A stretch of 60,000 nt of DNA, taken from positions 11,038,001 through 11,098,000 of the forward strand of contig OZ249436.1 in NCBI GenBank assembly GCA_965235115.1, in the 5' to 3' direction. Source of the stretch: Laetmonice hystrix. Lineage: Eukaryota. Position numbers and translations under genes: made by a program. The notes beneath the pieces are model-generated. The model worked only from the letters and a program-made list of their open reading frames with translations, was not told the DNA's origin and made no database searches. Positions within the stretch are counted from its first letter, which is position 1; the number at the start of each line of letters is the position of its first letter. Shown piece after piece: positions 209 to 53,786 of this stretch.

Positions 209-960
209 CAGTGCACTCCCTGGCGCGTGACGGTGATACACGTGTAGCCACGGCCGTCGTCAGCCGGCGCCATGATCATAGCGTCCCGGCCTTTCTTCAA
301 CTCACACGGCAGACTCTGCCTCCACGCCTGCCCTGCCCCCTGGTGGTGGCTGAGGCTGGCCGACCGCTGGCGGTGGTGGTGGTGGTGGTGATGGTAGCGG
401 CGGTGGTCAGCGGCGGGTGGAGGATCAGCCCTGGTGACGTCGTAAGCTGACTGCGTGCTGTGCCAAGGCGGGGACAGGGACTCGCCAAGCACGGCCGACT
501 GGGGACGGGCCCCCAGTCGCGGCAGGCTCCGCGACTTCTGCCGTCTCACGTCCAAAATGTCCCCAACCTCGGCCGAGACCGAGCAGGAGGAGGAGTAGGA
601 TGGCGGGGCTGGGTGTCGGGTCCTGGGGTGAGGCCTGAGGACGGGGCCGGGGAGCAGGGTGCCTGAGGCCGACCGAGGGAGGTGGACAGAGGGTTGGGGA
701 TCAAACTGTAAAGTTGTCACATAGCCCGTCCTAGGCAGAGTGCTGGCCCTGGCCTCCTGGGCAGGTAAGGGCCGGCCGCCGTGAACAGAGCTAGAGGGTC
801 TGGCCCATGGGATGGGGTTGTTCTGACGACTGCTCGGTCGAAAGGTGCTCAGTACGACCGGTGGAGGTCTCTCATCGATGTTCACACTCTGACTCCGCGG
901 CCGGTGCAGTCTCCGTACCGTTATGGCAACTGTCTCAGCATCCTGACTCAATCCCTTCAT
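209..960 (-). CDS. Large low-complexity (Pro/Ser/Arg/His-rich) coding exon, probable alternative N-terminal exon (MKGLSQDAETVAIT...TRQGVH[W]) of a gene continuing left of the window
   Basis: 251-aa non-repetitive, GC-rich ORF with a poly-His run and RxxS-type motifs (RPRSQSV, RQRSASL). Its apparent stop is part of a splice donor (CAC TG|GTAACG, GT at 208-207, phase 2). Acceptor candidate ...tttgtgaccag at 973-972. Confidence 0.7.
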
Positions 961-971
961 GTGGCCGGTTC

Positions 972-1146
972 CTGGTCACAAATATCATACACCTGGTCAC
1001 ATGTATCATACACCTGGTCACAGGTATCATACACCTGGTCACAGGTATCATACACCTGGTCACGGGTATCACACACCTGGTCACGGGTATCATACACCTG
1101 GTCACAGGTATCATACACCTGGTCACAGGTATCATACACCTGGTCC
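972..1146. repeat. 21-bp minisatellite, 8 full copies (minus-strand unit GTGTATGATACCTGTGACCAG)
   Basis: Tandem copies of ctggtcacaggtatcatacac read directly at 972-1139. Confidence 0.95.
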
Positions 1147-1179
1147 AGGACGCATCGTCTCAACCTCCTCTGATCCTCT
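1140..1179 (-). CDS. 40-nt candidate exon (ATG at 1155: MRPGP) upstream of the 209-971 exon
   Basis: Good acceptor ttttatttcggtttcgtgtag|AGAGG and donor CAG|GTGTAT. A phase-1 join to 971 gives an in-frame MRPGPGTGHMKGLSQ. Confidence 0.45.
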
Positions 1180-2047
1180 CTACACGAAACCGAAATAAAA
1201 CATTCCCCAAACTTGAGAACAAGATAATGCAATTTAATCCTCCAAGGAGCGCATGAAGGTAACTCCTGGTCAAGGTATATCGAGAAAACCGTAATCCAAT
1301 ATTGTTCAAGAGGTTCAGCGATCAGAAGGCGATGTCGGATTGCTTGCTGCCCAGAGTGTGGCCAGCAACAGTACTGGCCGGTATGGTTTAGTGGCAGCCC
1401 AGTGCACGCGTTCAACTGATGAGCCACACTGACAGGGGTAGCACACGTGACTCTAACTCGCCTCTATTTATCACAGGTATCCACACAACAAGCAGCCAGG
1501 TACTGGCTTGCCCGTCTACCAACAGGTATCTGTGTCTACTGCAGCAAGTTGCAAGCAGCTATAGGCCTAGCTGCCCATTCCGAGGGCTGCGGTCTAAGTT
1601 ACGGCCGACCATCTACTGCAGGTATAAAGAATGTCTGGCCTCAAACTTCATCACGGCTACCCTCCCGCCGTACCAGGCCGTGGTAGGTAGATCTAACCCC
1701 ACCGTGTTTCAGCAACTGAATGCGTTCTAACACCCGAGCTCACCCCAACCCATACACACGCCTTATCTAGACGTTTAACACACCCACAGCGGTCCCATTC
1801 ACAGTCCATTATGACTTGGTAGCGATCTCTGTGTCAAAATGAGAAACCTCACGCAGCTCAATCCATTCGGGCAGTATTAAGTATTTTTTGAAATGTTAAA
1901 CGAACGAGCGGTTAAGTGGCCACACTTGGAGCGGTGCCGCCATGCTGGAGGAAGGTAAACTCGGCCTCACGGGAGATCCTCTTAACTGAGGAGTACTTCC
2001 AGCAGGTGGGCTATGTCTGCCCTCCCACGGCGAGCACGAGTATACAT

Positions 2048-4097
2048 CACTGGCTACACACTGATCATCGTAACGCGCGTTACGCTGATCCAAGATGGAC
2101 GATCCCGATGCTCGCTTCGCGTGTTTTTGTTCAAGTTACAAGGGCTACGGTGCATCAACAACATAAAACAACATCTGAATATCATGATAACAATGTGTGC
2201 CTGCCGTTTGTCTCAGTTTGGGGTCCTAGACGGGCGTAGATTAAGAGAAAATGGACGCAGAAGATTTGGCGATGATACCCGTAACGCGCAGCGCTGATCC
2301 CCGTAACGCAAGTTTAATTTGGTGACAGGATAGGCGTAACGCGGCACCTAAACCTTTCACTGAGCCTAAAGGTTTTTACGTAGACGAGTAGACGACTTTC
2401 AACATCGGCTCGTGATCTGATAATGAATCTCAACTTTGTAATGAGCATTATCTACTTCAGTATGAAGGTAAAACCATGAGGTACACGTATATAATAGGGC
2501 CCGGATTAACAGCGTGTGTGATACTATACTATACTATAGGTGTTACCATACAGAGTGTGTGTGGACCCCAGGGCGGGGTCACGAATCTAAGACATGCCTG
2601 GCAGGCACCATGAGAGATCGAGATGCTTTGTCCTTCCCCAGTACCCCGGGGTAGAGCACCCTGACTCCTCCGACAGGGAGTACGCTAGTGAATTTTGGGT
2701 ATTAGCCACAGTGGCTAACAACTGAGGAAAAGAACTAGCCACAGGGAAAAAGTTTTAGCCACATTTGTTTTAATGTTTTTTATTTAGGTAACCAGAGTTC
2801 ATTATACATGTATTATACAGTCTTAATTTCTCTGTATAATATAAAGTACATGTACTTTCATTTGCCAGCTGTGTGTAGGCCTAGTGAACGTTTTTGGGGG
2901 AATAAGCTGTCCTATATCTCGAGGATAACTCTACACAAGTGGCCCTCTTGAGCAGCAAGAATATTGGGATCCAGTACAGTACACCTACACCTCAGAGGAG
3001 GCCTGGCCCAAATTGACGGGTACCTAGGCTATAATACCCTCTCATCACAGCGATCCCCCCCCCCCTGACAGCCCCCACCCCTCACACCCCCGACCCCCGT
3101 ACTGAGCGGCCGAGCTGCCTCCCCACCTTCATGCCATGTGACCTCAGCCATGCTATGTGTCGCCTGTCCTCTCCTGGTACACTCAGCCTGCCAGGTAATC
3201 GGGATAGATTAAACTAGGCCTATATTACTCCTACAGGCTGACTGGCATCTGTCATAAACTCACCCCAGATGGACTGGACCCAGGCCGGGGAGACGGGCCA
3301 GTACTGAGGGTCGGCCTGACCTGGGGTAGTCCGTAGTAGACTAGGGGGAACAGACGCATACGGGCGGCTGGCCTGGCCTGGCGGAGAGACCGGGTCGGGT
3401 GGGTCGGTCACCCTGGTCTCTGACCACCCACATGTCACACCGACACACGTGATCCAACCACAGTCAGTGGTGGACCAGGCGTGCATGGAGGGGGGACCTG
3501 GGCTATAAACTGGAGACAGCTGGAATTTGCAGGCGTGGCGAATTTGGTGGTTTATTTTGGCAGTGGAACTCGCCACAGGCTGGAAGTATTCGCGTTTGCG
3601 AGCGTGGCTACCGCTAACGTACTCCGTTCTACATGAAATTAAACTGTCAAAACTCTGCCACGACCTGCACAAGATTTCAAATAACACAAACAATTAAATT
3701 CCCTTCAAACGAAAACTGGTGAGAATGGTGTTTCTACTTGAAAGACGAAGAATAAAGGCAGTACAGCTTACGAGTGAATGGCAGACTAACCAGCAATGAG
3801 TCGCGTTACGGGTATCAATAATTCGCGTTACGGGTATCATTTGTCAACATGCTTGTCCGCGTTACGGGTATCACAGCGAAAATTTTCGGAGCGATTTTTG
3901 AGATTTCTAGGCAATCTCAGGCGCCGAGGTTCACCAAACATGATGCCACCATTACAATAAACAACTCTGACGTCTTACAGATGAATCAGAGACGCGGAAC
4001 TGCTTGAAATACGCCTAGTTTTAGTTGAAGCGAGACCTGCCTTCCTCCATCTTGGATCAGCGTAACGCGCGTTACGATGATCAGTGTGTAGCCAGTG
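2048..4097. mobile_element. Non-autonomous DNA transposon with perfect 52-bp TIRs (CACTGGCTAC...), CMC/EnSpm-like ends
   Basis: 2048-2099 is the exact reverse complement of 4046-4097. ATACAT flanks both ends (6-bp TSD, or 2-bp AT). Subterminal CGTAACGC motifs at ~2280-2345 and inverted CGCGTTACGGGTATC at ~3800-3872. No transposase ORF. Confidence 0.9.
2674..3628. mobile_element. Possible older hAT-like element nested inside the TIR element
   Basis: Left end CAGGGAGTACGCTAG is followed by three TAGCCAC motifs. The right end CTAACGTACTCCGTT is an imperfect inverted match preceded by GTGGCTA. No clear TSD. Confidence 0.35.
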
Positions 4098-4194
4098 ATA
4101 CATGTACTAAGTCTTGCTGATACAACTGACGGGAACTGTCCAGCCTTCCCTCAAGCAGAACGCCAGGCAGGCCAGCGACAGGCAAACAATACTC

Positions 4195-4275
4195 TTTGAC
4201 AGGCTTGACAAGTTGACAGGCTTGACAAGTTTGACAAGTTTGACAAGTTTGACAAGTTTGACAGGCTTGACAGGC
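4195..4275. repeat. 9-10-bp short tandem repeat (tttgacaag / ttgacaggc)
   Basis: Read directly from the sequence. Confidence 0.85.
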
Positions 4276-7200
4276 AGGTAGTTATCTACACGGCACCCAC
4301 GAGGGATCCTGTTTGATGTGAAGCTTGGAGCATTCCTATTGTGTAAAAGTATGATCCGACTACTGATCCAAGTGGGATTCCATGCAGGTATCTATAAATA
4401 CACCCAGGGTGACCAGAGTCAGGCGTCACACAGAACATCGATCAGGTTACCTTAAGACTGGCCCCGGGCGGGACTGTCTGCCCCATCAATCAACTAATGA
4501 GGTCCTAAAAATACCTGTAGGCCATCGCCACCTCTACTCTACAGGTGGCTTCGGGCATCTCAGGGATTTATCTCCTAGAAATATCTCCAATTGGTTTATT
4601 CTCACCATTTCTCTCGACCTTTACTCAAACTAAATCATGTGCCAATGTCATGAACATTGGATTCAAATGGCACGTTTCCAAACCGTAAACAGCTGAGGTC
4701 CTGGGTTCTAGTTTTCAGCTAGGCTTTCTTTCTTATACAGACTAGGCTTGAGTTATGATGCAAGTATTGTCTGTGTGTATGTTTCTATGTGCCAACAATA
4801 ACAAGTAATTCTGTTACTGCCAACGCCAAGAGGCTTTTCCCCCTATTAGTTTAGGTCCGTATCATCAGGGCTGAAGTAAACAAACTGTATTGTGAACACA
4901 TATTTCTTTTTGCTGTTCTTACTGCGTCTAGACAACCTGTCTCCGACAGAGGTCACTAGAGGTCAAGCCACTTGACCCTTCCTGAACTCTTGCCTTGCAA
5001 GCGTTTCAATACGTTCAGTCCAGGTTAGCACAAAGCAGGTGAGAGGACCTTCGTAACAATACATATCATAGTTCGTGAGGTCATGCGCTTTATGTGGCCC
5101 CAAGTCAGGCGGTTCTTTGGTTCCACATTTTACCACCATGTGTCAGCACTGTAACCGTCTCACTCTATGGACCGTCGGGCCAGTGCCGGCCACGTGCGTT
5201 AATACATATGTGTTATACTCGGCCTGTCACGTACACGTCTCTCCTGACAAGTTTACATTATTAAAGTATTTATATCCTCCAACAATAGAACTGTGTTATC
5301 ATCATTCATGATCATCATCATTCATTCGCGATGTTTAATTGGCTTCATTAGCCTGTACCTGGAAGCAAGGATACATTATTTCTGGAGAGAATAAAAATTA
5401 GAATATTACTTTAGTGTAGGAAACTACCTACATTACTCAGCCTGTCAGTAGCTGAGCTGATTGTTCGGGGATTCACTGCAGTAACTTCATGAGTGGGGAA
5501 GTCATTGACCATCCAAACAGTTCCTCTGTAATCGAATGATCCAGTAAGACCATTTCGTCGTTTAATGACCACCACACAAAGACATCACCTCGATGTGCAC
5601 CAACTCTCTACAAGTGACGGAAATAGTTCTTAGACAATGACGATTCCCTCCGTATTGGGCAAGTGTTGTCTAGGAGTAAGCAAAAAGACAGTCCTTATAG
5701 ATCTTCGTATCTATTTCCAAATCCTTCAATTCGCCAATTATAATGTTCACTGAAACCCTTACAAATAGTAGTAGAAATCGTGTGGAATCATAGAGGAATA
5801 CTTGTTATGAATGTGTAAGATTCACATTGTCAACTTTCATGATCGTCACCATTTCATCAGGCCGGCGTTTTAAGAGTTAAATCCAAGTACAAGTTTTTTC
5901 CTTTCACTACATGAACCCGACGTCTTTCACTTGGCTCGGCCGATTTGACCGATTCCTTTCACTCAGCACAATATCTCCACTATATCCTTAACGAGATCTG
6001 TCTATCCTGAACAAACATTTGTAGGTTAGCTCCAGCGTTGGTCTTTGTGTTTCACACAGAGGAGCCTATTTTCGGTACATGTGTATGCATTCATACCCCG
6101 GTCTTTCCGTCCGTTCATCCACTCCGTCCTGGGATCCTATGTTCTCGTTTAGTTTGTTGGCACACAACCACCTCAACTTCTGCAAATCTGGCGGTTACGA
6201 GGAGTTTGAGAGCAGTGAACCACTAACGTCCACTGACTCAACAACCAATCAGTGCGACTGTGTCTCCTCCGCTGGTGGTGAAGGAGCCGTGCTAGAAGTG
6301 ATACAGGGTGTATCAAAAAAAGTATCCAGTCAGAAAGATGAACCAGAAACGAACCTTTCAACCTAAGCGGGGTGCAAAGCTCTGTGTAAAGAAATGGCGG
6401 TCATGGAGGACGAATAAAGAGTTATACTTTTCCAAGGAACCGGTAGTAAACACAGTACCGGTACATGTTAAATTTGCCTGTCATGGGCTCTGAACATGTT
6501 TGAAACCTTGAATTTTTTTGCTCAAGTTAATTCCCGGTTTACGAAATTGGCCCCTGTTCACACAGCTCTACATGATCGTGAGGTAGCGTGAAACCTTCGT
6601 CACCAATATGTCTGTCGGATTTGATGAAACTAATGACAGGATTATTTCTGGTTCATGTTTCGGAGTGTATACCTTTTGTTGATACACCCTGTAGTATAAG
6701 TTGATAAGGAGCCTTGCCAGGGCGGACCGCCCCATGGTTAACATAGAAACCGGCCATTTCCTTCTCGAGTAGCTGCATAAAAAAATGTACGTGACTAATG
6801 AACAATGAACGATTCCGTTTCCCCCAGGAGAAAGGTGCAACCACAGGAGCCCACTTCACACTCCGACGTTTCTGATCAGAATCAGAGCACTTGTTTCTGG
6901 CACGGCATGGGTTGACCGCTCCACCCGAGTCACGACTCAACACAACTGGCAGCTTTCAACTCCCCCCCCACTCCTCAAGTATTAATTGTGGCCTCACTGT
7001 GGGCAAGACAAATGAGGCCACACTTCAATTGTGCCAAAGTTGTACAGAATGGCACAAAATTGTATGCGAAGGATTTTGAGAAAAAGGAGTCAATGTATAG
7101 AGCACACCCGACACCCCAGAATAAACGACAGCGTTTTTTCAGACCTTCCTGCCCCCTTCATTTATTCAGGCCACTCTCCACATCATATTCGCCGGTATTT

Positions 7201-8536
7201 TAGACAAACTGCACACCCCGTGAGTAACAGATGTTCCCGAATCATGTGCAACCCATCTGTTATCACAAAAAAAAACAGTTCTGAATTCCGAAGGAATGAT
7301 GTGAGCTGACTGACTTTCAATAAAACCTGTCACAGATCCTTTTGACACTTGACTCTTCATTTTTTGCGCTTCCATAAAGGCGAGTCTTTCTCCGGCAGGG
7401 CAAAATATGTTCCTTTGCATATTTTCAGTTTTCCATTTTTTTTCAACAAGTTTTCACAAATAATAACCTATTTCTTTTCACATATTTTGGTTTATGCTAT
7501 ACGTTTATGAGTGCAATGGTACTTCCCGACAATCTTTGGTCTTTCACTGTAATAATATTAAATGACATTTTCACTGTAACATGGAGAAATCATTGCTTTC
7601 CAACTTTCCATTGTAACGGGATGTATTTGAACACAATCTCAAACAGTACCACTCTGCGAATAGTGAATTCAATCCTGAACGGTTTACGGCTTGATGCTCG
7701 ACAACAATTACAATTCTACATGGACTGTAATACGCCGCTCGCCGCCACAATGGTATAATTGTGCCAAGCTCCACCAAAACCTCACTTCAGTTCCCGTCCA
7801 TGACCGACTTCATTAATTGGAGGGAGTAGAACACTCAGGAAAATTACCTATTTGGTGGTTTGGGAACCAATTTTTTCCTATTAATATTAGCCGGATAATG
7901 CTAGTTCCCATGGTAATCACACATAAAGCACTACCGCGATTTTTTTTGAACCGTTTCAAAGATTCAGTGCTTTGTGTGATAATTTGTCATATTGCTCGCT
8001 GAACTATGGCACCACAGATACTTTGAACACAGCAGGTATGTTTTTAAAGATCTATCTTTAGTTATCTCATTTGTTAAATATATCTGTAATAATTATTTAC
8101 CTACTTGTGTTTTGTTTCAACTTAATAACATAAAGGGTGGGGGATATATGTTGGCATGAAATCCAAGTGCTGAACGCAAGCGTTCTCCCTCCGACAGCGA
8201 TAGTTAGCAAGGTTACCGCCAGATGGCACACATGCATCAAGACCACCCTCACTGACGTTAAACCGGGATCCACAGACTTCTGTCGCTCTTGTCCTATTAT
8301 TTAACAGATGGAAACACCAAAATAATAGTAGTGACTTGCAGAATCTGTTGTTGGCCTTCATGATCCCTCACCTCGTACAGACCTTCCATCTCTTTATCTA
8401 AGCTATACTCATCACCTTTGACGTTTTTATCTGATACTGAGGTCCCATTCTTGATCCCATTTTTTTCGACCACAGCCCCCCCCCCGACCTATGACATGTA
8501 GAACTTTCCAATACTATAATGTGAAAGCTTGCGCCC

Positions 8537-9112
8537 TTACAACGTTCTGTCGTCGGTACATTCTCAGACAGCCAGCCGTTCACAGCGAGCTCACTGTGCC
8601 CGCAGTTATAACACGACTTTCTCACCCTGTAAGCTCGTCTCTCGACCTCACGGAGTTAGTGCTAACAGGCACAGATCGTAGGCAGATAGCTCTTCATTCT
8701 GTCAGCATTCTGTCAGCAGCCTTGTTTTACAACGTTCTGTCGTCGGTACATTCTCAGACAGCCAGCCGTTCACAGCGAGCTCACTGTGCCCGCAGTTATA
8801 ACACGACTTTCTCACCCTGTAAGCTCGTCTCTTGACCTCACGGAGTTAGTGCTAACAGGCACAGATCGTAGGCAGATAGCTCTTCATTCTGTCAGCAGCC
8901 TTGTTTTACAACGTTCTGTCGTCGGTACATTCTCAGACAGCCAGCCGTTCACAGCGAGCTCACTGTGGCCGCAGTTATAACACGACTTTCTCACCCTGTA
9001 AGCTCGTCTCTCGACCTCACGGAGTTAGTGCTAACAGGCACAGATCGCAGGCAGATAGCTCTTCATTCTGTCAGCATTCTGTCAGCAGCCTTGTTTTACA
9101 ACGTTCTGTCGT
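8537..9112. repeat. Tandem triplication, units of 190/179/190 bp
   Basis: ttacaacgttctgtcgt recurs at 8537, 8727, 8906 and 9096. The middle unit lacks the internal 11-bp attctgtcagc duplication. Confidence 0.95.
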
Positions 9113-10607
9113 AGAGTTGTAATGTACATAATTCTAGATGCCACATTGACCTGGACACAAAGATTAAGCATCACTATCATAAAATTATGCAAAACCAATG
9201 CAACTTTAAAGAAGAAAAAAATGCACAAAATCAAGTTACTGATAATGCCGCCCAATATTAACGGTAACTACGAGATAATTTTATGAACGTTGAATGGACG
9301 TTTATCACCGTCATCCGTCCATACGCTGACAAACCAGAAAAACCAATTCATATACAGCTGTGTGACACGTGAGAAAAACAGCTCTGGTTTAACCAGACAG
9401 AAGGTGTATATAAAGTCTGAAACCAACTGCCACGGCAGTCTTTTTTTTCACAAAAAATAAAAATGCAAAGAAAAACAGGGCTTGGAGAGAGGGTGATAGA
9501 GAGACTCCAATAACAGTTGGTCGAACTATGAAACAGCATTATGCTTTCCCCCCTTCCATGAGCTAGTCTTGCACGAACTACTGGGTCAGAATGAATGCAG
9601 AATGAGTAAGTGAACCAATATATCGGGTACTTATTCTCACTGACCCCAATCACATAACCATTCTCAATATCCGTCCTTTATAAAATATGGTCAATTCTGA
9701 TCTTGTTCTAAAAGAGATTGAATTTTTATCAATTTACCATCGTGATCATTGCTTTCAGTATTGTCTGCAGGTGTTCCGTTGTTCACCGGACACCGCGTAT
9801 TTCAGATCAGATATGCTGACAATACTTGTATAGACATTCGTGATAATCAGGTTTATTGACACAGTAATTAAGATTATATGGGTTTACATATCCGTTTTCC
9901 CTTTGTATTACAGCACAAATCTCAGCTCTCTACAATCTGTGAGAGATTTATCCATTCTACACTCAATTCTAGAATTGGGCCACTGGGTGCAATTCGGCGT
10001 TATGAACAGGTCAGGCCGAAATAAATGGCACAGCTCGGCTGATTTGACCGAAATCTAGTTTACCCGTGCCAATGCGCATGAGGAAATATGAAAAGTTGTT
10101 TGAACATAAAACTCCAGACAGAATGCTATGAATCAAGATCAAAGATAGCGGCCCCCCCGGTACTAGATCAGTTTGGCCCCGGATACAATCATTTTATGAG
10201 TTACGATACGGGTTGTGAGTAAGAAACATCAATAGACACTCGCTGTATAAATATGACTTGTTATCCACGATCCAATACAATGATTTATTCCATACAAGCT
10301 ATATATTTGTAATATTGTCACTTTATATAATAACACTCAATATCTAAACGTATCATGTGCCCGTCCTTTTCAAGCCATTGATTTTCAAGTGCGCGGTGTT
10401 CAAAGCTCTATAAGCTGGGTTCATCAAAAGGAAATGGTTCGATCGTTCACCCTGTTTGAACAGACTGAGTGGTCGCCTTGGTGACCAACCAGAAAACCTG
10501 CCCTCAACTGAAACCATCGTCCGTCCTGGTCAGTTTGCCGGAGTCTGTCTCTGATCACACGGTCGATAGAAGCAGAACCTCCCAACACATATAGACTGTC
10601 CTCACGG

Positions 10608-11437
10608 CTGTGGACCCAGCCTGTGGACCCACCTCAAATGGTGAGGCGAGCCTGTGTACCCACCTCCAATGGTGGGACCAGTCTGTGGACCCACCTCCAA
10701 TGGTGGGACCAGTCTGTGGACCCACCTCCAATGGTGGGACCAGCCTGTGGACCCACCTCCAATGGTGGGGCGAGCCTGTGGACCCACCTCCAATGGTGGG
10801 ACCAGTCTGTGGACCCACCTCCAATGGTGGGACCAGTCTGTGGACCCACCTCCAATGGTGGGACCAGTCTGTGGACCCACCTCCAATGGTGGGACCAGTC
10901 TGTGGACCCACCTCCAATGGTGGGACCAGTCTGTGGACCCACCTCCAATGGTGGGACCAGCCTGTGGACCCACCTCCAATGGTGGGGCGAGCCTGTGGAC
11001 CCACCTCCAATGGTGGGACCAGCCTGTGGGCCCACCTCTAATGGTGGGACCAGTCTGTAGACCCACCTCAAATGGTAAGGCGAGCCTGTGGACCCACCTC
11101 TAATGGTGGGACCAGTCTGTAGACCCACCTCAAATGGTGGGGTGAGCCTGTGGACCCACCTCTAATGGTGGGACCAGTCTGTAGACCCACCTCCAATGGT
11201 GGGGCGAGTCTGTGGACCCACCTCTAATGGTGGGGTGAGCCTGTGGACCCACCTCTAATGGTGGGACCAGTCTGTAGACCCACCTCAAATGGTGGGGTGA
11301 GCCTGTGGACCCACCTCTAATGGTGGGACCAGTCTGTAGACCCACCTCCAATGGTGGGGTGAGCCTGTGGACCCACCTCTAATGGTGGGACCAGTCTGTA
11401 GACCCACCTCCAATGGTGGGGCGAGTCTGTGGACCCA
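10608..11437. repeat. 31-bp minisatellite (~27 copies) with internal hairpin cccacc-tccaat-ggtggg
   Basis: Tandem ctgtggacccacctccaatggtgggaccagt. The overlapping ORFs show a 31-aa period, consistent with a 31-bp unit. Confidence 0.95.
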
Positions 11438-14487: not shown

Positions 14488-14523
14488 AGACTTCTGTTTA
14501 CGTACAGTGCCACTTTTTTTTAC

Positions 14524-14636
14524 CAGGACCTGCTGGGTGGCAGCCACCGTCCAGACCGCCACGCCAGCCCAAGCAGGGTTTTATACGCACGTCTTATTAC
14601 CATGACTATGCAGGTGATCATCGCTCCCTGCGGCAT
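14524..14636 (-). CDS. Weak candidate alternative first coding exon (MPQGAMITCIV...PPSRS[W])
   Basis: ATG-initiated open frame of 37 codons + 2 nt ending TG|GTAAAA (phase 2). The donor is weak and this may be chance. Confidence 0.2.
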
Positions 14637-17455: not shown

Positions 17456-17499
17456 GTGTTCGTCTCCGGCGACGGTTCCAGCACGTCGGCGGCTGCCAT
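17456..17499 (-). CDS. Candidate alternative first coding exon (MAAADVLEPSPETN[T])
   Basis: Acceptor tgtctgtgacag (17514-17513), Kozak-like GCCATGG, 14 codons + 2 nt, donor AC|GTACGT (phase 2). Confidence 0.55.
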
Positions 17500-18946: not shown

Positions 18947-19053
18947 CAGATGGTCCCTGAAGGCGCGCTGGCACTGGTGTAGAGCAGCATCATTGTCGGC
19001 TCTTCCCCCATCCCCGCCGTCCTCGGCGTCACCACTGTTGTCATGGTATCCAT
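18947..19053 (-). CDS. Candidate alternative first coding exon (MDTMTTVVTPRTAGMGEEPTMMLLYTSASAPSGTI[W]); the frame is open further upstream to an acceptor at 19162-19161
   Basis: Strong donor TG|GTAAGC (phase 2) and GC3-rich codons. The ORF-track entry 18943..19170 ends exactly in the donor. A second frame is also open, so the frame is inferred from phase consistency. Confidence 0.55.
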
Positions 19054-19415: not shown

Positions 19416-19474
19416 CAATCTGATGGTGGTCCAGTGAACTCCTGGCCGTACCCGGTATCTACTGCCTCGTTCAT
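19416..19474 (-). CDS. Candidate alternative first coding exon (MNEAVDTGYGQEFTGPPSD[W])
   Basis: Acceptor ttcttacctgtag at 19542-19541, 19 codons + 2 nt, donor TG|GTCAGT (phase 2). Lies downstream of the TATA/Inr at 19994/19964. Confidence 0.5.
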
Positions 19475-26228: not shown

Positions 26229-26353
26229 CTGAAGTTGCGAGTCTCCATCAAAGTCATCCAATGACTCAAATCGGAGCATGACCTGACTAGTTTAGCTCTG
26301 TCATTAACTGGTTCGACAACCCCGACTTTGGTTCTGGTGATTACCTCCATCAT
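26229..26353 (-). CDS. Candidate alternative first coding exon (MMEVITRTKVGVVEPVNDRAKLVRSCSDLSHWMTLMETRNF[R/S])
   Basis: 41 codons + 2 nt ending at a consensus GC donor CAG|GCAAGT (phase 2). A competing GT donor 4 nt further (phase 0) also exists. The peptide looks protein-like (RSCSDL). Confidence 0.45.
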
Positions 26354-29097: not shown

Positions 29098-29135
29098 TTG
29101 TGGACGATGACTGGTCTTAGCACCCTGTCCTCCAT
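29098..29135 (-). CDS. Candidate alternative first coding exon (MEDRVLRPVIVH[K/N])
   Basis: ACAATGG start context, 12 codons + 2 nt, strong donor AA|GTAAGC (phase 2). Upstream TATA/Inr present. Confidence 0.55.
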
Positions 29136-35299: not shown

Positions 35300-35379
35300 C
35301 TTTTGCGGCCGATGTTGAGTTGACTTTGTATCCAGGCCGACAGCAGCACATCCTGTACGTCCTGGGCCACGATCGACAT
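35300..35379 (-). CDS. Candidate alternative first coding exon (MSIVAQDVQDVLLSAWIQSQLNIGRK[R/S])
   Basis: GCGCCATG start, amphipathic helix-like peptide, 26 codons + 2 nt ending at a GC-type donor AAG|GCAAGA (phase 2). An in-frame upstream ATG lies at 35403. Confidence 0.5.
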
Positions 35380-41000: not shown

Positions 41001-41286
41001 GAACATTGATTTCACTTTAGAATTTACACAAACGGGAGAGAAAGACAATATACTGCTGAGTTTTCTCTATCTTAGTGTTCAGCTATTCCCATCTGTTGTT
41101 TGAACAGACTTCCGTTTCTGTGGTTGCCCTATTTAAAGACCCCAGTCAGTCCCTCCGGGTAAGTGACCTGTCCGTGACTCCAGGACCCATGCCAACCTCC
41201 TCAGTGGCCAGTGTGACCTGTCAGTGGACGTGTGACCCATCCATGGCTCCAGGGCAGGCTGCAGTCCTGACCGTCCCATACGTTAC

Positions 41287-41498
41287 TGTTGTTGACGAAG
41301 GAGCTCCAATGCCATCCGTCTGTGAGCCTGCTCTGTGCCACCTTCCTCTTCCTGCTCCCCTCCTGAATGACTTGCTCCTGACCCCTCCCGGCACGCTCCC
41401 TCCATCCCCACTAATGGCATCAACATCGGACCCAATATTTGGCCAGTAAACCATTCACATGTAGACGCCACTGATGATATTACTGAACATTCGTCCAT
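41287..41498 (-). CDS. Candidate alternative first coding exon (MDECSVISS...RRMALELLRQQ); alternative frame 41454-41282 (MVYWPNIG...SSTTV)
   Basis: GC-rich island with acceptor gcctacag near 41514 and donor CA|GTAACG (phase 2). The overlapping frame also ends phase 2 at AC|GTATGG, so the frame is ambiguous. Confidence 0.35.
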
Positions 41499-43252: not shown

Positions 43253-43832
43253 ACCGAAACCAACACTGCCATTCAGTGCCCAGGTAGACACAAGCTACCG
43301 AAACCAACACTGCCATTCAGTGTGCCCAGGTAGACACAAGCTACCGAAACCAACACTGCCATTCAGTGTCCAGGTAGACACAAGCTACCGAAACCAACAC
43401 TGCCATTCAGTGCCCAGGTAGACACAAGCTACCGAAACCAACACTGCCATTCAGTGCCCAGGTAGACACAAGCTACCGAAACCAACACTGCCATTCAGTG
43501 TGCCCAGGTAGACACAAGCTACCGAAACCAACACTGCCATTCAGTGTGCCCCGGTAGACACAAGCTACCGAAACCAACACTGCCATTCAGTGCCCAGGTA
43601 GACACAAGCTACCGAAACCAACACTGCCATTCAGTGCCCAGGTAGACACAAGCTACCGAAACCAACACTGCCATTCAGTGTCCAGGTAGACACAAGCTAC
43701 CGAAACCAACACTGCCATTCAGTGCCCAGGTAGACACAAGCTACCGAAACCAACACTGCCATTCAGTGCCCAGGTAGACACAAGCTACCGAAACCAACAC
43801 TGCCATTCAGTGTGCCCAGGTAGACACAAGCT
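43253..43832. repeat. 44-bp minisatellite (43-46-bp variants), ~13 copies
   Basis: Tandem accgaaaccaacactgccattcagtgcccaggtagacacaagct. Confidence 0.95.
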
Positions 43833-46603
43833 TGTACTTAAAGCTCCACCTCAGTCAAGTGATCATCAGTTTAACACTGAATCATTGCATTACACCTTGA
43901 ACTCCCTCGCAACCAATCAGTTCCTCATACTTTATAGTCTTGAGAATCACGCCAAACGATGGCAGCTTTCTGAGGTAACACTGGCCTATAGCTCCATGTG
44001 TTCCTCCCTCATCCTCCGTCGATATGCTAACTGATATGTATACGCCTTGTGTAAATTTTAAACCAGAAGAAATTTCCAATTCTCCCTGTCCTGCCTGATG
44101 TTAGGAACTTTAAGAGTTCCAAGCCTATTCACTTTGTGACAATCCTTGGTAATTTTCGGAGCTGCTAATGCTGCTACAGGCTAACAAATCTCCTTCTCAC
44201 CTTCCCAAGCATACCAAGATCAAAGCCCTTGCAGAGATGACCTGACGGGGCCGACTGTTGCATGTAATGACTCCAGAGTCAGATCCTTGACGGTCGTCAA
44301 TCCGTCCTCCGACCCTTTAATCCAAGGACTGTGGGGTACACGTTCCTCCAAGCCGAGCGGTGATACGCTGTGTGCGCGCTCGCGGTGACATCAGGCACAC
44401 AGCTATGGAGAACCACGAATCGTTGGGGTGGCGCAGACCTCACCCTATTGTTGATGGCACGGGCGGGAGGCGGTGGCAGCGGCGTCAGTCCTCCTCAACA
44501 GTGGCCAACTCCTCACTACGAGCGGGTCCCAGTCCCCGAACGTTATCAACCAACGCCAAGCCGCTGTCCAATAGCAGCCCCGCAGTGTGTAGCTACTTGT
44601 AACCATGGTGATTGTCACCATAATCAGTATGGAGTCGGCGGGCTGGGACAAACTCGTTTGTGTGCATCTCCGCAAACAGGGACTGCTCAGCTTCTTGTAA
44701 TAGCTTGAATGCTTCTCAGAACATCAAAGTGAATCTATGAAAATCCTCATGAGAATCCCCCTATTTATTGACTGGCCATTCCCGCCAGCTTTGCTTTATC
44801 ACTGGAACACGAAGTCAATTTGTACGACAATTCCTACGTTATAACACTAAACATGGGTGTCAAATATCTCTTGCATATGTAGTTTGGCACTAAGCAGTGC
44901 ATACTATTGAATGAGTATCTCTGGCCATATTGACCACAATGCCGCATTATTTTTAACCAACTGGACCAAGCCCGATAACGCACGTATACAGCAGTGAAAC
45001 CTATTGGGAATCCGTAACTTTTTCAACACGACCACATCCTGATTTCTGGTCCAACTAAAAGGCCAGCTTTGTGAAAGGTTGTGCCACCGGCTCCAGCAGG
45101 TAATTCAGAACCTGCCTGGCCTTTATCACCAGGCCGTTTGCCATCAAAATGTCACTTGGTAGCCGCCCGATTTAACAGGCTAAACCTCAGCCCTAATCCC
45201 AATCTTAACCCTGCCAAGTGTTTCCTGGGTCAAATCAATAAATATGTTCTACACTGCACTGGTCTCATGGATCATCCGCGACCCGTGTTGATCGCAGGCC
45301 TCGGACAGGCTTGCTCCAGGCCTTGCCAAGTTCAAAGCACTTTTATTAGTGTTAATAATGTTGCTATTCCACCTACTGTAATTCGGATTCAAATGCCAAA
45401 TAATCTGCAATGATAGGAATCCAGACTGATGGAAGAGTCTCAGAGATGCTATCAGGTCCAAGTACCATTAAATGTGGTGTTATACAAACTCGCGTCGACT
45501 TGATATAAAAACCTACAATTCTGTCAACGGTCGCGTAATTAGAGCAAACACCTTGCCAACACGTGACGGTGGACTATCGCTATAATTATCTACCATTTTT
45601 ACGTGTTGGTCAACCAACTCTTGCTGACCAACTGGTGAAAGAACTGTTTGCCTATGTAAGATTAAACGTATCCACATCTGCAGGCCTGCCCACCCAGCGC
45701 GGCTCGTCCCAGTGGCCTTCATGTGGCCACCGAGCAGAGAAACCGTATAAAGTAGTATGTGAAATGTGGCCGATGTATCAGGTTCTGTAACGCTAACCGT
45801 CCCAGCGGTTTTCCAAACCAGTCATCCCCGTAAAAGCATTAATCCTGAAAAAACTGACTAACTCTGCTCTGTTTTTTTGGCTATGGCAATATATATAAAC
45901 CTGGGTGAACAATGAGGCATGTATACCATCTGACAAGATATTACCTTACCTCCTGACAATTTCTACAATAGATTGACCAGTAGCGTGGTGGGTGTGTTTA
46001 CGACGCCTCGGCTTGCTTCATTTCCCTCCAAGCTCTGTTACACGGCTTTTCAGTTTCATAATCTATATTTCAGCGTTAAAGACACACGTCCTAATATGAT
46101 CTGACTGGCGCCTAGACTCTACTGAAGCTCCTAGCTCCGTTCCGCGCAGACTTTTGATACCCACATTATTATTCAGACATCCAATGTTCCTCAAGTTTTC
46201 TCTCGGTCAATTTTCCTTTCGGAAATAGAAACATTTTTGTCAAAAAGCTCCACATCGATTCGGCTAGAATTTAAGGGACATTGTCGATAATAAAAGACAT
46301 TCTATTTTCTGACCTTTCACTTGCAATGCCCCGTTTTAAACGTCATATGGTTAACGACACGCTTCAAAAGGGTCCCTTCGAATGGAAAAACACTGGAGGT
46401 ACTGAGTATTTCTCCTCTATATCCTCATTTTGAACCTACATTCTACTTAGCTATATCAGCAGGGACGCCTATTATAGATCACTTTGGGCGTCTATCTACT
46501 ACTAGTGATATGAGACAAACGATGGATCTTTTTATGTGTGTGGGGCCTTCAATCTTCCTTCTGACACAAGTTCTAGTTGTAAAATAAAATAAAATCAGTT
46601 TAC

Positions 46604-46617
46604 CTTGAGCGAGCCAT
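46604..46617 (-). CDS. Micro N-terminal coding segment MARS[R/S] inside a 45-nt exon (46604-46648)
   Basis: ATG GCT CGC TCA AG|GTAAAC (phase 2). The exon is bounded upstream by a strong acceptor. Confidence 0.45.
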
Positions 46618-46642
46618 ACTGTTTCTGAGTGTCAAACGTGGT

Positions 46643-46670
46643 ACTTACCTGAAACATACAGAAACAACTA
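46643..46670 (-). other. Candidate recursive splice site
   Basis: ttgtttctgtatgtttcAG|GTAAGT (AG 46650-46649). Confidence 0.65.
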
Positions 46671-47177
46671 CACATCAACATCAAATCAAATAACACATGT
46701 CAAATATCATGCATCGACGTAAAACTTCACACCCAACATACGAAAGCATCGGTTTGAACCCATGACTAAAATCGTAAAATGTCAAATACCAAAGTTAAAA
46801 AGTCTGCTTTGGGCCGACTTTACCCACAAAGTTGGACATCGCATAATTCTATTAAAATATACAAATAACCATTAGACTCGGTCTGCAAGTTTAAAGAATT
46901 AACTCACTAATTACGTACACTTACTTACGTACAATTACGTAATATAATCTCTGATATTTAATATGTACTGATTGACGGAGACGTTCTCAAAGTGTCTGTG
47001 CACACAGCTCATTACTTCCCAATGTCACGCCTTTGTTTGATTGCGTTATTATTTCCCCCTTTTCTGAATGTTGTCATTTCAATTATTCTACAGCATATTC
47101 TCGTTGTCTTCCGGAGGCTTATAATTTCCAGGATTCCAAATGTAAAATTGACGAGATGAAATAGAGAGTCTGGAGAG

Positions 47178-48349
47178 TCTGTACGGTCTCTGCATGACCT
47201 CCTGACAGATCCCCAGACCACATTCCTCAACTCATCTTTACGGTCTCTGCATGACCTCCTGACGGATCCCCAGACAACATTCCTCAACTCATCTGTACGG
47301 TCTCTGCATGACCTCCTGACGGATCCCCAGACCACATTCCTCAACTCATCTGTACGGTCTCTGCATGACCTCCTGACGGATCCCCAGACAACATTCCTCA
47401 ACTCATCTGTACGGTCTCTGCATGACCTCCTGACAGATCCCCAGACCACATTCCTCAACTCATCTGTACGGTCTCTGCATGACCTCCTGACGGATCCCCA
47501 GACCACATTCCTCAACTCATCTGTACGGTCTCTGCATGACCTCCTGACGGATCCCCAGACCACATTCCTCAACTCATCTGTACGGTCTCTGCATGACCTC
47601 CTGACGGATCCCCAGACCACATTCCTCAACTCATCTGTACGGTCTCTGCATGACCTCCTGACGGATCCCCAGATCACATTCCTCAACCCATCTGTACGGT
47701 CTCTGCATGACCTCCTGACAGATCCCCAGACCACATTCCTCAACTCATCTGTACGGTCTCTCCACGACCTCCTGACGGATCCCCAGACCACATTCCTCAA
47801 CTCATCTGTACGGTCTCTGCATGACCTCCTGACGGATCCCCAGACCACATTCCTCAACTCATCTGTACGGTCTCTGCATGACCTCCTGACGGATCCCCAG
47901 ACCACATTCCTCAACTCATCTGTACGGTCTCTGCATGACCTCCTGACGGATCCCCAGACCACATTCCTCAACTCATCTGTACGGTCTCTGCATGACCTCC
48001 TGACGGATCCCCAGACAACATTCCTCAACCCATCTGTACGGTCTCTGCATGACCTCCTGACGGATCCCCCAGACCACATTCCTCAACTCATCTGTACGGT
48101 CTCTGCATGACCTCCTGACGGATCCCCAGACCACATTCCTCAACTCATCTGTACGGTCTCTGCATGACCTCCTGACAGATCCCCAGACCACATTCCTCAA
48201 CTCATCTGTACGGTCTCTCCACGACCTCCTGACGGATCCCCAGACCACATTCCTGAACTCATCTGTACGGTCTCTGCATGACCTCCTGACGGATCCCCAG
48301 ACCACATTCCTCAACTCATCTGTACGGTCTCTGCATGACCTCCTGACAG
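47178..48349. repeat. 57-bp minisatellite (~20 copies)
   Basis: Tandem tctgtacggtctctgcatgacctcctgacggatccccagaccacattcctcaactca, giving a 19-aa periodic ORF. Confidence 0.97.
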
Positions 48350-48741
48350 CCTAATCAATTTCTTCTCGATACGGTTTATCAACGACTCCTACATCTACTG
48401 ATATAGGGCGTTTTTTTCACCTGATTCCATCACTGGTGATTTTTACCAGGAGAAACCAAGTAAGGACGGCGAAATAGTCCGCCGAATATGACATTAGTCT
48501 CGACATATCCACAGACAGCGACCGCCGAGCATCAATCACACATAGCAACCGCCAGCGGCACGAGCCAATCAGATATGAGATAACAAGTTCAAGTCAGGAA
48601 CCTCCCTATAGGACGATAGAAACCGCCCTCAAAAATATCTATCTGAACTAATATAGCTGTCCTTGAGCCTCACACGTGTTCAGGTCAAAATGGTAAAAAT
48701 AGAAGCCAATACACATATACTAATATTGAACAACGTTGACC

Positions 48742-48984
48742 CAGTGGCATGGAGAGGGGGGCAGTGGGCGGGGGGGGGGGGGGGGGCTAGTGCCCCAGGG
48801 CTAGGGCCAATTGTGGGCCAAGTTGGCCCGGGCCAAGCTGGATTTCATTGGGGGATCCACGATTTTGATAAGGGGGGCCAACCTAAAAAGATATTTGCCT
48901 CGCTACGTTCGGGGAGGGGTAGGCCAGTAGGGGGACCCATGAGTTGTGCTGCCCCAGGGCCCGCCCTGGCTCTCGACGACACTG
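48742..48984. mobile_element. hAT-like MITE (243 bp)
   Basis: Imperfect TIRs CAGTGGCATGGAGAG / CTCTCGACGACACTG. Flanking 8-mers cgttgacc and cgttaaac match 6/8. Internal GCCCCAGGGC motifs and G-tracts. Confidence 0.65.
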
Positions 48985-50582
48985 CGTTAAACGAAAAGGT
49001 TTCGTTCAACTTCTGGTTGCTGGGTTTCCACTCCCTCTCAGACGAAGAATCTCAGACGAAGAATCTCATCAGGCCAAGTCAGCATTTTTCTGTTTTCCCG
49101 AGAATCAGCCTCCATAATCTGATCAGCATTTTTCTGGTCTGACGGGTTTCATTCCCCGGACTCCATTATTCATAGTTTCCGAATCCCTTCTCTGACAGAT
49201 GTAAAATTACCTAACACAAATCATGCTTTCTCACATTTTTCTCTTCAGTCCCATATTACGTCTGCCCCATCTTGAGTGATTCTACCAAAATGATTTACGT
49301 GAAAAACAGAACTTGGACAAAAGCTGCATTGCAGAGTCATTCGACGTTCTGGGAGTGGGCTGATGATCATGCCGACCCTCCATCAATTCCTGCCCAGCCA
49401 TCGGTCCGGCTCTGAGGGGCTTTATTCGGGATCTACATCTCGGACTATCAATATGCTGCACCCCGCCTGCAGGTGCACCGACCCATGGGGCTACTTCATA
49501 AGAGTAAGTGTTATTAGTACATGGACAGATTGTGGCCCAGCGAGAGGCCTGCTACTACTGGAGGTGTCTTCCAGGGTCAGCCGGGCACGAAGCTGCAGAA
49601 CGTCAATGAAAAACCTCCAGGGATTTTTCTTTTCTTTCTTTCGTTCATTAATAATTTCAAGGATCAGGACGAGCCGACATTTCTTTGTCCGTCCGACATG
49701 TGGACATAGGTGGTGGTCCTTTAAACAATTTAATCGCAAAGTGTAAGAAACAAATTCAAAATTTTCTGTTCTGGTATAAAAAAAAGTATAGGGTTGAAAA
49801 GGTCGCAACTTCTATTGGGACACTATAGTATAATCCATCTGTGGATTACACTGTTGACTTATATCCACATTGCTGTCTTAAAAGTGGGACGTTCAAACAA
49901 TGCAACTTAAAGTTTGCAACCTCCTTTGCCCGTCGAAAGACTACTACACTTGCTTTCATTTGATCTCTTTGGGAATGTTTTACAAAATACACAATCCGGT
50001 TATTACATCAGCTGACAATGAAAATAAGCTTACCTCAAAATGTTGGCAGCTAAAGTCATTGAAGCACTCAAAGCATCTTACAACTTTAAACCTCTTATGC
50101 TGTGAGCTGCTCTTAGCAACTAAAAGAAGTTCAAATCTCAGCTTTGATCTATTTGATAAAACCAGACTTTATTCCTGCCTCAAGTTATACTTCAACAAAA
50201 CACAATGTTATGCAAAAGCAACCAAAAAACCCCAGCTTTTATTGAAACTGAAACATCTAATCTTGTCTTGAAAAATCTTATCCATTTCCTTTGCCTCATG
50301 CCAGAGAACACAATAAAAGATTCCTAGACAGAAAACATCGTCCAGTGAACGCCGTGTTGCAACTGTGAGCGGGGTTGTTCCTGAACGTCGTGTGTCAGTA
50401 AATATTTCAGGTAATTTATACCAGGTAATAGAGACGTTCGCTAACTTCCACCAGACAGCGCACATATCAGGCTGGCAGGCGAGACTTCTACTGCACTCAT
50501 ACGTCAAATACGATCTCCATGTGCTATGGCGCCGCTCCCCGTCCAACAACCCGACAGACATCTACAAAGGCCATCTCAGTTT

Positions 50583-50853
50583 GGACAAGACTGCACAGAC
50601 AATGATCTCCACCATCCACTCGCCCAGTCGTGAGGACAAGACTGCACAGACAATGATCTCCACCATCCACTCGCCCAGTCGTGAGGACAAGACTGCACAG
50701 ACAATGACCACAGCTCCACCATCCACTCGCCCAGTCATGAGGAACAAGACTGCACAGACAATGATCACAACTCCACCATCCACTCGCCCAGTCATGAGGA
50801 CAAGACTGCACAGACAATGATCACAGCTCCACCATCCACTCGCCCAGTCATGA
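50583..50853. repeat. 51/57-bp tandem repeat, 5 copies
   Basis: ggacaagactgcacagacaatgat...ccatccactcgcccagtc repeated. Confidence 0.92.
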
Positions 50854-53658
50854 GACCTGCCTGGAAATCCATCATGTGATGGTATGTCCTCAGACAGCAA
50901 TTAATTTCCGGCTGCTCTCCAGGGTGCCTGACCGACGCACATTAACGATGGCGAAGGTGACTGCTTTGACCAGGAGAAACAAATACCGGGTCCTCAGCAA
51001 CACTACCCTGGGTAAGAATTCATAAACGAACGATAAACCCTGCCGCCTCCTCGACTCTGTCACTATCAGCAGTGTTATTTTGTTATAGTCGACGTAAGCA
51101 CATGAAAACACCACACTTCTCAGTCAATGATGGAGAAAATTCAAATCTGTTGGCTTCAATAAATTTCCATCAGTCGTAGCACTGGCGCGGCAAACTAAAT
51201 CATACCCCCGGTATAATCAGACCAACGAGTATAAATAAAGACTAAAGACCCTAGTCCCAATCATGACAAAATTAATAACTGCATATATCAATTTATTACT
51301 TAAAACTCTAACCGAAATACATGTATAGCCGGTCAGGTTCCTCAGGCTCTCTTGATACAACTCAGCTAGCTTGCGCTGCGCAAGGCCTCACCTCTCTTTC
51401 GTTTATAGTCTATAACAAACGACCGTTTATCCTCACACTGGACGGCCAAGAAGATGTTATCAGTTGTTTTTAGCTATACACCCGTATTTATACGAAATGT
51501 CTCGGCATCAGATTTCTTCAAGTAAAACAGACACGCAGCCACTGATCAATTTCCGACCGTTTTGAGAAACTGCGATGTTAAAAAACATCTTGTGAAGAAA
51601 GTCTTTTCCTGGAGGATAAGAAACCGCTGACCCCCAACCCCGTTTTCTATACGAGCTGTAGGCCCACTCACCAGGTTAGAAGTCTACCGTACTGTCTAGG
51701 TTCTATGGTCATGGTAAAGATTACACGACACATGAAAGGAAAGATAATGACTCCCGACTACCACAGTTTGCCTCAAGACTTACACAGTCCTTTGATATGA
51801 CAGTCTGATGAGAGTACTAATTAACAAGGCCCGCCCTGTTCCTCCCTACTATGTGCATCCAATTAGTGTAATGTTTAGTCTCACCCTGATGACGTGTATT
51901 CAATTAGTCTGAAACCAACACTTTGGACAAACTATACACGAGAAGGGGCGTTCATTCTATCATAAAGCAAATTTTATCTCGACAAACGTTGCTCACCTAT
52001 AATATGATACCTATAGTGGACATTATCTTTATGTAGTTAATTCAACTTAGTTTGAATTAACCTCGTCAAAGAAACATTCCCTTTAGGAGTATGATGCCTA
52101 GTACCATGCCTGACGATGACGGTATAAATTTACGAGTACATGTACTATAAGTTCACTGGCTGATTAACCTACCGGTATATCATGTGTGGATTACTGTCAA
52201 TGACTTACACGTTATTATCTAGCACATACCAACAGATGCTGGAAACGACTATTTCCCAGAATTGTCATTATTCCGCATCTGGAGCAGCGAGACAAGCAAA
52301 CCATTGCTTCTGACTTAATGGCCTACTTAGTTATGGTTCATGCTACTCCCCCCATCCCCCAATCCCCCCCCCCCCCCCCCCCACACACACACAGACACTC
52401 TGCCCGCATCTCTATATCTTTTCTTCTCTCCGTGCGTATTTCCCAGAGCCGTGCTGCTGCAGTTACTCTGTTTTCCACCAGGTGGCAGCGTCAGTCATTT
52501 AGCAGCTCCATGAGTACGTATTTGACGTGGCTGCGAAGCTGGGAATCATACACGGAAACAGTACCTTCATCAATCCAAGAACTTTGTAAAATAATGTTTA
52601 CCTGACTGACTGGACTTTTATTTAATTGATAGAGATATAATTACTGCACCTGCCCCAGACTTTGCAATTTAACAAGAGGGCTCTTGGTGCAATAACAAAA
52701 CGTGTCGTGTGCAATGTTTAAAATAAGCTTTATAATTGTAGTAATTGGTATAATTGCTTAGCCTCCGTGATAAAATTGTCAACATAGACAATGGATGGAT
52801 ATTACATTTATGAAGAATATATGATCTGAAAACAGATAGGCTTGAGTAGACTGAATGATGCAAAACTAACAACATTATGATGTGAATCTAGATATCTAGA
52901 TTGAATGATGCAAAACTAAAAACATTATGATGTGAAATAAATTTAAAAAATGTGATAATGCAGTGTTATATGAACCAGCACGATTAACAATTTTATCTCT
53001 CATAAAGACCCGACAGTACAGCGGACATAAGTGACGGATGAGACAGCTTGTCCTGACGGGCCCAATAAATCCCCACTCCACGTGTATGGGCGGCCGGTTG
53101 GGTGGTCATATCTGCTGCGGTCCATATGTTAGAAAACTTTCACATTACCTCTACTGTCTGTCGTCAATACATGCCGACTGGGCATTAAGTGTTTCCGTGA
53201 TGACATGTTTAGTTACGAGTCTATATCTATTAATCCATCGACAAACCACCAGATAATCATCCGACAACTGACAAAACCTGAAAAAAATACGCCAAACACC
53301 TAACGCCAGATGGAATTAAAATTACATATTGTACAACATTATGGCATTCCTCATTCTGGAACGTTATTTTATATTTAATCACAATATAAATGTGAAATGC
53401 ACCTGGCGTTAAACCATATTATTTACAGAAAGATGGAAAGTATGACATCTAATGGCCTGGTAACTATGGTAACGAGGCGCTTTCATCATAACAACCTGCA
53501 GGGGCTCCACCATGGTGACAAACACTGCGCCCTCCATTTTTTTCTAAATGATCTTCTATCATAAAGTGTACGTAATAACACTCCAGATTATACTAAGGAT
53601 CAGAGCACAACGTCAAGAGTTGCTCTGACAAACTGTGCTGAGTTTAGCGGGTACCTAC

Positions 53659-53786
53659 TCTTGGTTAATCTCCACCATGATCGTACTGTAGTCCAGGGCC
53701 CACTGCTGCAGGTAACTGTAGCACAGTGACTCATTCTCATCGGCACAGATCCAGATATCGCCTCCCACATCGCTCAATTCACCCAT
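53659..53786 (-). CDS. Candidate alternative first coding exon (MGELSDVGGDIWICADENESLCYSYLQQWALDYSTIMVEINQ[E/D])
   Basis: GCTATGG start, coding-like codon usage, 42 codons + 2 nt, donor GA|GTAGGT (phase 2). The ORF-track entry ends in the donor. Confidence 0.6.

Follow-up and report, generated by a model that had tools for sequence, protein, structure and literature searches.

The DNA analysed here is a 60 kb stretch of the Laetmonice hystrix genome, referred to throughout as the window (positions 11038001-11098000 of contig OZ249436.1, C1, in an assembly of 627 Mb in 35 contigs). It probably covers the 5′ portion of a minus-strand Homer gene, in which multiple alternative first exons would be spliced directly to exon 2. 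According to the original prediction, ten ATG-initiated segments distributed over the window, each open to a splice donor that cuts two bases into a codon, were alternative first exons of one minus-strand gene with a constant region left of the window. The gene and its constant region were located there by sequence comparison, and two of the ten segments (35379 and 960) have comparative support as first exons; the other eight lack such support and are expected by chance. A third conserved exon was found to the right of the window.

Homer exon 2 and the constant region

The gene was identified by the leftward extension which the original prediction had proposed, for which 200 kb of left flank was taken, 573 open reading frames (ORFs) were prepared and the nearest 150 on the minus strand were scanned against Pfam. 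Two of these matched PF00568 (WH1; cut-off 22.4 bits), namely L009:8416-8661(-) with an E-value of 8e-14 and 52 bits over profile positions 9-55, and L009:5501-5728(-) with an E-value of 1.6e-11 and 44.6 bits over profile positions 60-102. Homer exon 2 (C1:11036464-11036620) starts on the minus strand at L009:8620, corresponding to window coordinate -1380 (negative coordinates lie to the left of the window), where the acceptor at C1:11036620 reads ttttttttag/G GAG CAA CCC, the slash marking the splice boundary here and below. Exon 2 consequently has the third position of a codon as its first base, which means that the donor of a first exon must bring two codon bases (phase 2), and the first shared downstream exon thus has the predicted phase, its acceptor fitting the phase-2 donors of all ten candidates.

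The peptide encoded by exon 2 is the start of the EVH1 domain, the first half of which contains EGSK. A search with its 52 amino acids (aa) returned 1111 proteins at an E-value of at most 0.001 among 1112 candidates; of the 120 matches listed, most of those with a name are annotated as 'homer protein homolog 2' or as WH1 proteins, and the closest named invertebrate ones are annelid WH1 proteins with 85-88% identity, the identity to the best-scoring matches being 81-94%. The remaining EVH1 exons and conserved coiled-coil exons were placed further left by tblastn with the full-length relatives P0012 and P0030, the coiled-coil exons, including QLKYENDRLKIALAQ, showing 81-84% identity at window coordinates -8298..-8685. 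Pfam families for coiled coils matched the left flank only below their cut-offs. An N-terminal EVH1/WH1 domain, similarity to named Homer proteins and a C-terminal coiled coil are thus all present, and on this sequence evidence the minus-strand gene is a homologue of the Homer scaffold. It belongs to none of the gene families (PDE4, plectin, UGT1 and clustered protocadherins) that had been named for comparison. A PDE4-type gene was considered and rejected, as the 46 genomic matches to PF00233 (PDEase_I) lie elsewhere, the nearest on the contig being at 28.3 Mb and 63.2 Mb as compared to 11.04 Mb for the window. The idea that the EVH1 domain begins at 'ITVTRQGVH' was likewise dropped after exon 2 had been read.

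Homer proteins connect glutamate receptors, Shank and calcium-release channels, and vertebrate Homer1 is activity-induced, hence the interest of two perfect palindromic cyclic AMP-response elements, TGACGTCA, which were observed at L030:4139-4146 and L030:4088-4095 (window coordinates of approximately -854 and -912). Separated by 51 bases, they lie within the intron that separates the 250-aa segment at 960 from exon 2, at a distance of 468-526 bases ahead of the latter.

Conserved exons upstream of exon 2

Metagenome contigs were scanned with the exon 2 of a relative, which yielded 12 orthologous Homer loci. The closest of these, L037, has 85% nucleotide identity in exon 2, the same layout of the exon 2 acceptor and 10 kb of coverage upstream of exon 2. 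The recommended tblastn comparison of the candidate peptides with related genomes was run on these 12 loci, and it gave a credible match for 35379 but for none of the other candidates searched.

The segment at 35379, which we call the SAWI exon after its LLSAWIQ motif, matched L037:5904-5981 (MSIVSTDVQDILVSAWIQHKLDISRK) with an E-value of 3e-9 and 69% identity. Its counterpart in L037 (about L037:5904-5983) has an ATG start, precedes Homer exon 2 by 4 kb in the same orientation and reads AAAAG/GTGAGC where the window has AAAAG/GCAAGA; in the DNA alignment the differences are largely at third codon positions and the similarity stops at the donor. L037 carries a second, paralogous SAWI exon (L037:3437-3513; MSVDIPENLLVSAWIHQQLHLISQS) with the GC donor AAG/GCAAGT, the two copies being 2.4 kb apart and having one GC and one GT donor, while the window has one detectable copy. 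The candidate peptides are mutually unrelated, as had been claimed, within the window, two first exons of L037 being paralogues. Similarity of the SAWI peptide extends to the N-terminal end of P0030, a full-length invertebrate Homer of 443 aa, with a BLASTP E-value of 4e-5 in a single comparison and a tblastn E-value of 0.005 among many queries. There is, on this comparative evidence, a high probability that 35379 is a real Homer first exon.

The third conserved exon, here termed the distal exon, lies approximately 9 kb beyond the right end of the window, and its orthologue was found at L037:22-95 (MDGMDKHIHDYYVLRTPSSTVYYP TT/GTGAGT) with 13 of 16 residues identical and an E-value of 2e-8. In both species the exon starts with an ATG that is closely preceded by an in-frame stop, and an identical GTGAGT stands at the point where the similarity ends. 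It probably serves this Homer gene as a further alternative first exon, in which case the whole window would be inside the gene. The distal exon, with its DYYVLR motif, and perhaps the SAWI exon as well, might instead belong to another upstream gene or to a non-Homer transcript, with Homer starting elsewhere. The distal exon was indeed first detected as a stop-ended ORF, which might represent the terminal part of an adjacent gene, and the link of the conserved upstream exons to Homer is a prediction from sequence. We nevertheless regard this alternative as improbable, owing to the retention in both species of GTGAGT directly behind the coding part, of the ATG and of the upstream in-frame stop; the order, strand and phase of the conserved exons, which fit exon 2 in both species; the presence of a SAWI-like peptide at the head of a full-length Homer, P0030; and a Pfam scan of the 50 kb to the right of the window (150 ORFs of the minus strand), in which no family scored above its cut-off.

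The segment at 960 comprises an ORF of 250 aa, hereafter the long exon, which is single-copy in the genome and precedes exon 2 by 1588 bases in the same orientation. A phmmer search over 1.84 billion proteins returned three matches: P0002 (230 aa; E-value 3e-78, listed identity 69%), P0003 (332 aa; E-value 1e-10, listed identity 42%), and P0004 (5756 aa), which matched over a short internal stretch only. P0002 and P0003 share the start methionine with the 250-aa ORF and both end in ...GY(T/S)C(I/L)TVT(R/K)QGVHW. They are ORF-type calls on contigs, and would consequently end at a phase-2 donor in any case. A near-length protein search retrieved P0002 only, a word-indexed protein search found no longer protein containing the ORF, the ESM Atlas gave no usable match, Pfam has no family for it, and metagenome contigs searched with the alignment of the three sequences yielded no related locus. 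A search of sequencing runs with exon 2 plus the long exon listed three runs of one sample and none of RNA; mapped to L030, the three cover introns as evenly as exons, lack splice joints and are DNA. Among the differences listed from these runs, the three single nucleotide polymorphisms that fall in the ORF are all synonymous third-position changes, a further 72 differences being outside the listing. Conservation and a coding-type substitution pattern are apparent for the distal, SAWI and long exons alike. The 250-aa segment is predicted to be disordered, AlphaFold2 on the three-sequence alignment giving a mean predicted local distance difference test score of 46 and no secondary structure. 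Its conserved basic/serine motifs RPRSQS, RSAS and RPQS resemble phosphorylation sites and may indicate phospho-regulation. Separately, a 21-bp minisatellite of 8.6 copies, the units of which carry ACCAG/GTGTAT, occupies window positions 971-1149 and ends 11 bases upstream of the long-exon ATG.

A number of points weigh against the interpretation of the window as a set of Homer first exons. The promoters of the conserved first exons, and their splicing to exon 2, are predicted from sequence. The L037 locus is a metagenome contig. The match of the SAWI peptide to P0030 is short (25 aa), and P0030 has 28 further residues before EQPIY that lack a counterpart in the window. On a rough donor matrix, the two supported exons within the window score 5.7 and 4.4, no better than the unsupported ones. 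No counterpart of the long exon was found in L037, over its 10 kb before exon 2, or at the other 11 loci, no database protein fuses the 250-aa ORF to an EVH1 domain or Homer body, and its phase-2 GT follows automatically from a tryptophan codon plus stop, so that the ORF could be a separate small gene. On that alternative, the 250-aa ORF would be a single-exon gene nested on the same strand in the first intron of Homer, encoding a small disordered protein ending ...QGVHW-stop. The missing counterparts and fusions speak for it, as do the ends of the homologous ORFs of this family, all three of which finish in tryptophan plus stop, the frequency (roughly a quarter or higher) with which real ORF ends look like phase-2 donors, and the mediocre long-exon donor GTAACG (5.7 on the rough matrix). 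It is opposed by the position of the ORF, in the proximity and orientation to exon 2 given above and in a gene that uses phase-2 first exons, by the absence of AATAAA or ATTAAA between the ORF stop and exon 2, and by the homologues being known only as ORF-type gene calls, bound to stop at the donor. We consider a separate gene unlikely, albeit the most serious of the alternatives, and an alternative Homer first exon at 960..209 fairly probable.

The canonical first exon of Homer consists of ATG GG only, giving MG-EQPIF (P0011, P0012, P0031 and P0036). Of the 12 loci, five more distant relatives (L041 and L043-L046) have ATGGG/GT at a distance of 230-1170 bases from exon 2 on its upstream side, and it is absent from the 10 kb that L037 has ahead of exon 2; the window has four minus-strand ATGGGGT sites, none with a convincing donor or context. 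The lineage may, judging from these loci, have given up the minimal first exon for longer ones. Many annotated or transcript-derived animal Homer proteins bear other peptides before EQPIF (P0118, P0124, P0116 and P0030), which indicates that alternative first exons at this junction are common in the family. We propose tentatively, and with somewhat less than even confidence, that in this lineage the near-universal MG-EQPIF start has been replaced by conserved promoter-specific N-terminal modules: the 56-aa ...DYYVLRRPDSTVYYP, the 26-aa ...LLSAWIQ..., which also heads a distant invertebrate Homer and is duplicated in L037, and a disordered one of 250 aa.

In the architecture that we infer for this Homer gene, several alternative promoters would each have their own ATG-bearing first exon ending two bases into a codon, the comparatively supported ones being the distal 56-aa exon, the 26-aa SAWI exon and, less certainly, the 250-aa exon. 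Each would be spliced straight to exon 2 and so place a different N-terminal peptide against the first EVH1 strand, yielding products that have the EVH1 domain and coiled coil in common and differ in the N-terminal peptide. The functions of these peptides may include localisation or phospho-regulation of the scaffold. The introns would have swollen from approximately 4-10 kb, as in L037, to 37-70 kb here by the gain of minisatellites and mobile DNA.

Chance background and the remaining candidates

All ten candidates begin at the reported ATG, run open to the reported donor and have a length of 2 modulo 3, when the reported donor coordinates are taken as the first intron base; eight have GT donors and two GC donors (26228 and 35299). 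Their shared splice phase, which had been offered as evidence, is void as such, having been built into the finding of candidates from ORF ends. Every stop codon begins with T, so that a last sense codon ending in G reads NN/GT(AA/AG/GA) and mimics a phase-2 donor. Among minus-strand ORFs with an ATG, this applies to 190 of the 673 of at least 4 aa and to 45 of the 124 of at least 35 aa, and six of the ten candidate donors are such G-plus-stop ORF ends. The GC skew of the plus strand (its excess of G over C) is strongly and persistently negative, reaching a cumulative -3.1 over the 60 kb; the minus strand, which is the transcribed one, is thus G-rich, and as a result more minus-strand ORFs end in G plus stop (28-42%, as compared to approximately 20% on the plus strand). 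A G-plus-stop ORF end fits a phase-2 donor in a quarter to a third of all ORFs, which cautions against reading shared phase as evidence, although the phase inferred in this way proved correct for the actual gene.

The donor 4-mers that had been accepted (GTAA, GTAG, GTAC, GTCA and GCAA) occur at 2007 minus-strand sites in the window. An ATG-open path leads to 535 of them in phase 2, as compared to 437 in phase 0 and 477 in phase 1; the plus strand has between 343 and 412 such paths in each phase. On the donor weight matrix, which is rough, its base frequencies being assumed values, the ten candidates score 2.3 to 9.0 bits, and 132 minus-strand phase-2 ATG-open sites score at least 4 bits and 47 at least 6 bits. 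As a set, the ten candidates are no more than chance yields. Each member of a battery of first exons has to be a real, selected coding exon, and homologues elsewhere were found for two of the ten.

The seven unsupported peptides that were long enough to be searched by tblastn gave no credible match in the 12 related Homer loci (Table 1). The matches of the 26353 peptide (E-values of 0.037 and 0.14, in L040 and L036) fall on the strand opposite to exon 2 and downstream of it, and were rejected as noise, and the peptide of 53786 gave an 11-residue, 22-bit match in L037 (E-value 0.23) that is not within an ATG-initiated exon there. Weak chained tblastx matches between the relatives and the window are mostly sum-statistics noise, and the two strong matches alone were used. 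The product of 46617, MARS-R-EQPIF, resembles the start of human Homer3; this likeness was set aside, as the junction arginine arises from any exon ending in AG. The original prediction would be right in full if all ten or so segments were used as Homer first exons. The ten do all fit the phase of the exon 2 acceptor, four of the candidate regions tested are single-copy DNA and not transposon debris, and one candidate, 53786, has a TATA-like box, GGCTATATTTACC, at window 53820-53835 on the minus strand, approximately 45 bases upstream of its ATG. Equivalent ATG/donor pairs, however, arise by chance in hundreds, the seven searchable peptides have no counterpart in L037, the 10 kb of which spans the distal exon to exon 2, and none of the unsupported candidates has a Pfam family. 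We therefore consider it very improbable that all ten are used, and chance pairing of ATG and GT within intronic DNA is the most likely origin of the other eight candidates.

Table 1. Putative first exons and unsupported candidates, in window coordinates (donors written exon/intron; scores in bits on the rough donor matrix)
Feature	Coordinates	Strand	Coding part and donor	Comparison
Long exon	209..960	-	250 codons + 2 bases, CTG/GTAACG	ORF conserved in two other species from ATG to exact donor position
14-aa candidate	17456..17499	-	CAC/GTACGT, score 4.7	no tblastn match listed in 12 related Homer loci
35-aa candidate	18947..19053	-	CTG/GTAAGC, score 9.0 (best of ten)	best tblastn E-value 2.9; single-copy
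19-aa candidate	19416..19474	-	TTG/GTCAGT	no match listed in related loci; single-copy
41-aa candidate	26229..26353	-	GC donor CAG/GCAAGT	region essentially single-copy; unsupported
12-aa candidate	29098..29135	-	CAA/GTAAGC	best tblastn E-value 0.26, 8-residue match; unsupported
SAWI exon	35300..35379	-	MSIVAQDVQDVLLSAWIQSQLNIGRK (26 aa) + AG, GC donor AAG/GCAAGA	conserved in L037
70-aa candidate	41287..41498	-	ACA/GTAACG, score 2.3 (weakest of ten)	best tblastn E-value 1.6; no Pfam family; single-copy
4-aa candidate	46604..46617	-	MARS + AG, AAG/GTAAAC	too short to search
42-aa candidate	53659..53786	-	AGA/GTAGGT	single-copy; unsupported
Distal exon	69132..69301 (L031:9132-9301), outside the window	-	ATG-started 56 aa, ...IHQDYYVLRRPDSTVYYP CT/GTGAGT, phase 2	

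Known systems and composition of the window

The studied variation among Homer isoforms, that of Homer1a, concerns the 3′ end of the gene and the C-terminus, and a full-text literature search surfaced no paper on the choice of Homer first exons. Alternative peptides at this junction are already known from many database Homer proteins and multi-promoter genes are textbook knowledge; the gene proposed here is an ordinary example of the latter. Promoter-selected, conserved N-terminal modules would constitute a second, little-studied route of Homer regulation, in which promoter choice would set whether the postsynaptic scaffold bears a targeting peptide or a phospho-regulated arm, the long exon providing the disordered and possibly phospho-regulated one. 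The gene resembles those of the Homer family (Homer1/2/3 in vertebrates and the single Homer of invertebrates) in that the EVH1 domain starts from EQPIF in exon 2, with the methionine and two bases given by a first exon, whereas it differs in the lack of a convincing ATGGG/GT in the window or L037 and in the greater length of the conserved first exons (26, 56 and perhaps 250 aa).

Genes in which variable first exons join a common exon include PDE4, plectin, UGT1A and the clustered protocadherins, which are alike in having ATG-bearing, donor-only first exons of one phase and one common acceptor; here there are two to three supported exons rather than ten, in a gene outside those families. Tandem paralogous first exons of the protocadherin or UGT1A kind number two in L037, with one detectable copy in the window. 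A comparable invertebrate case is unc13 in Aplysia, where intronic alternative promoters yield N-terminal variants of a synaptic protein (PMC9282427). Both are synaptic scaffold or active-zone genes with intronic starts and differing N-termini, although unc13 is another gene of another family and was described from a transcriptome (PMC9282427), as compared to sequence conservation for Homer.

Minisatellite arrays scoring at least 200 fill approximately 12 kb of the 60 kb window. An Rfam scan of the window gave no family, as did a Pfam scan of the 150 longest non-repeat ORFs of the window on both strands. A high-copy element was observed at window 2044-4113 (L030:7044-9113), where the DNA runs reach a depth of thousands; two of these runs each have one contig that bridges the position and omits 2068 bases, and the element is a presence/absence polymorphism of a mobile element.

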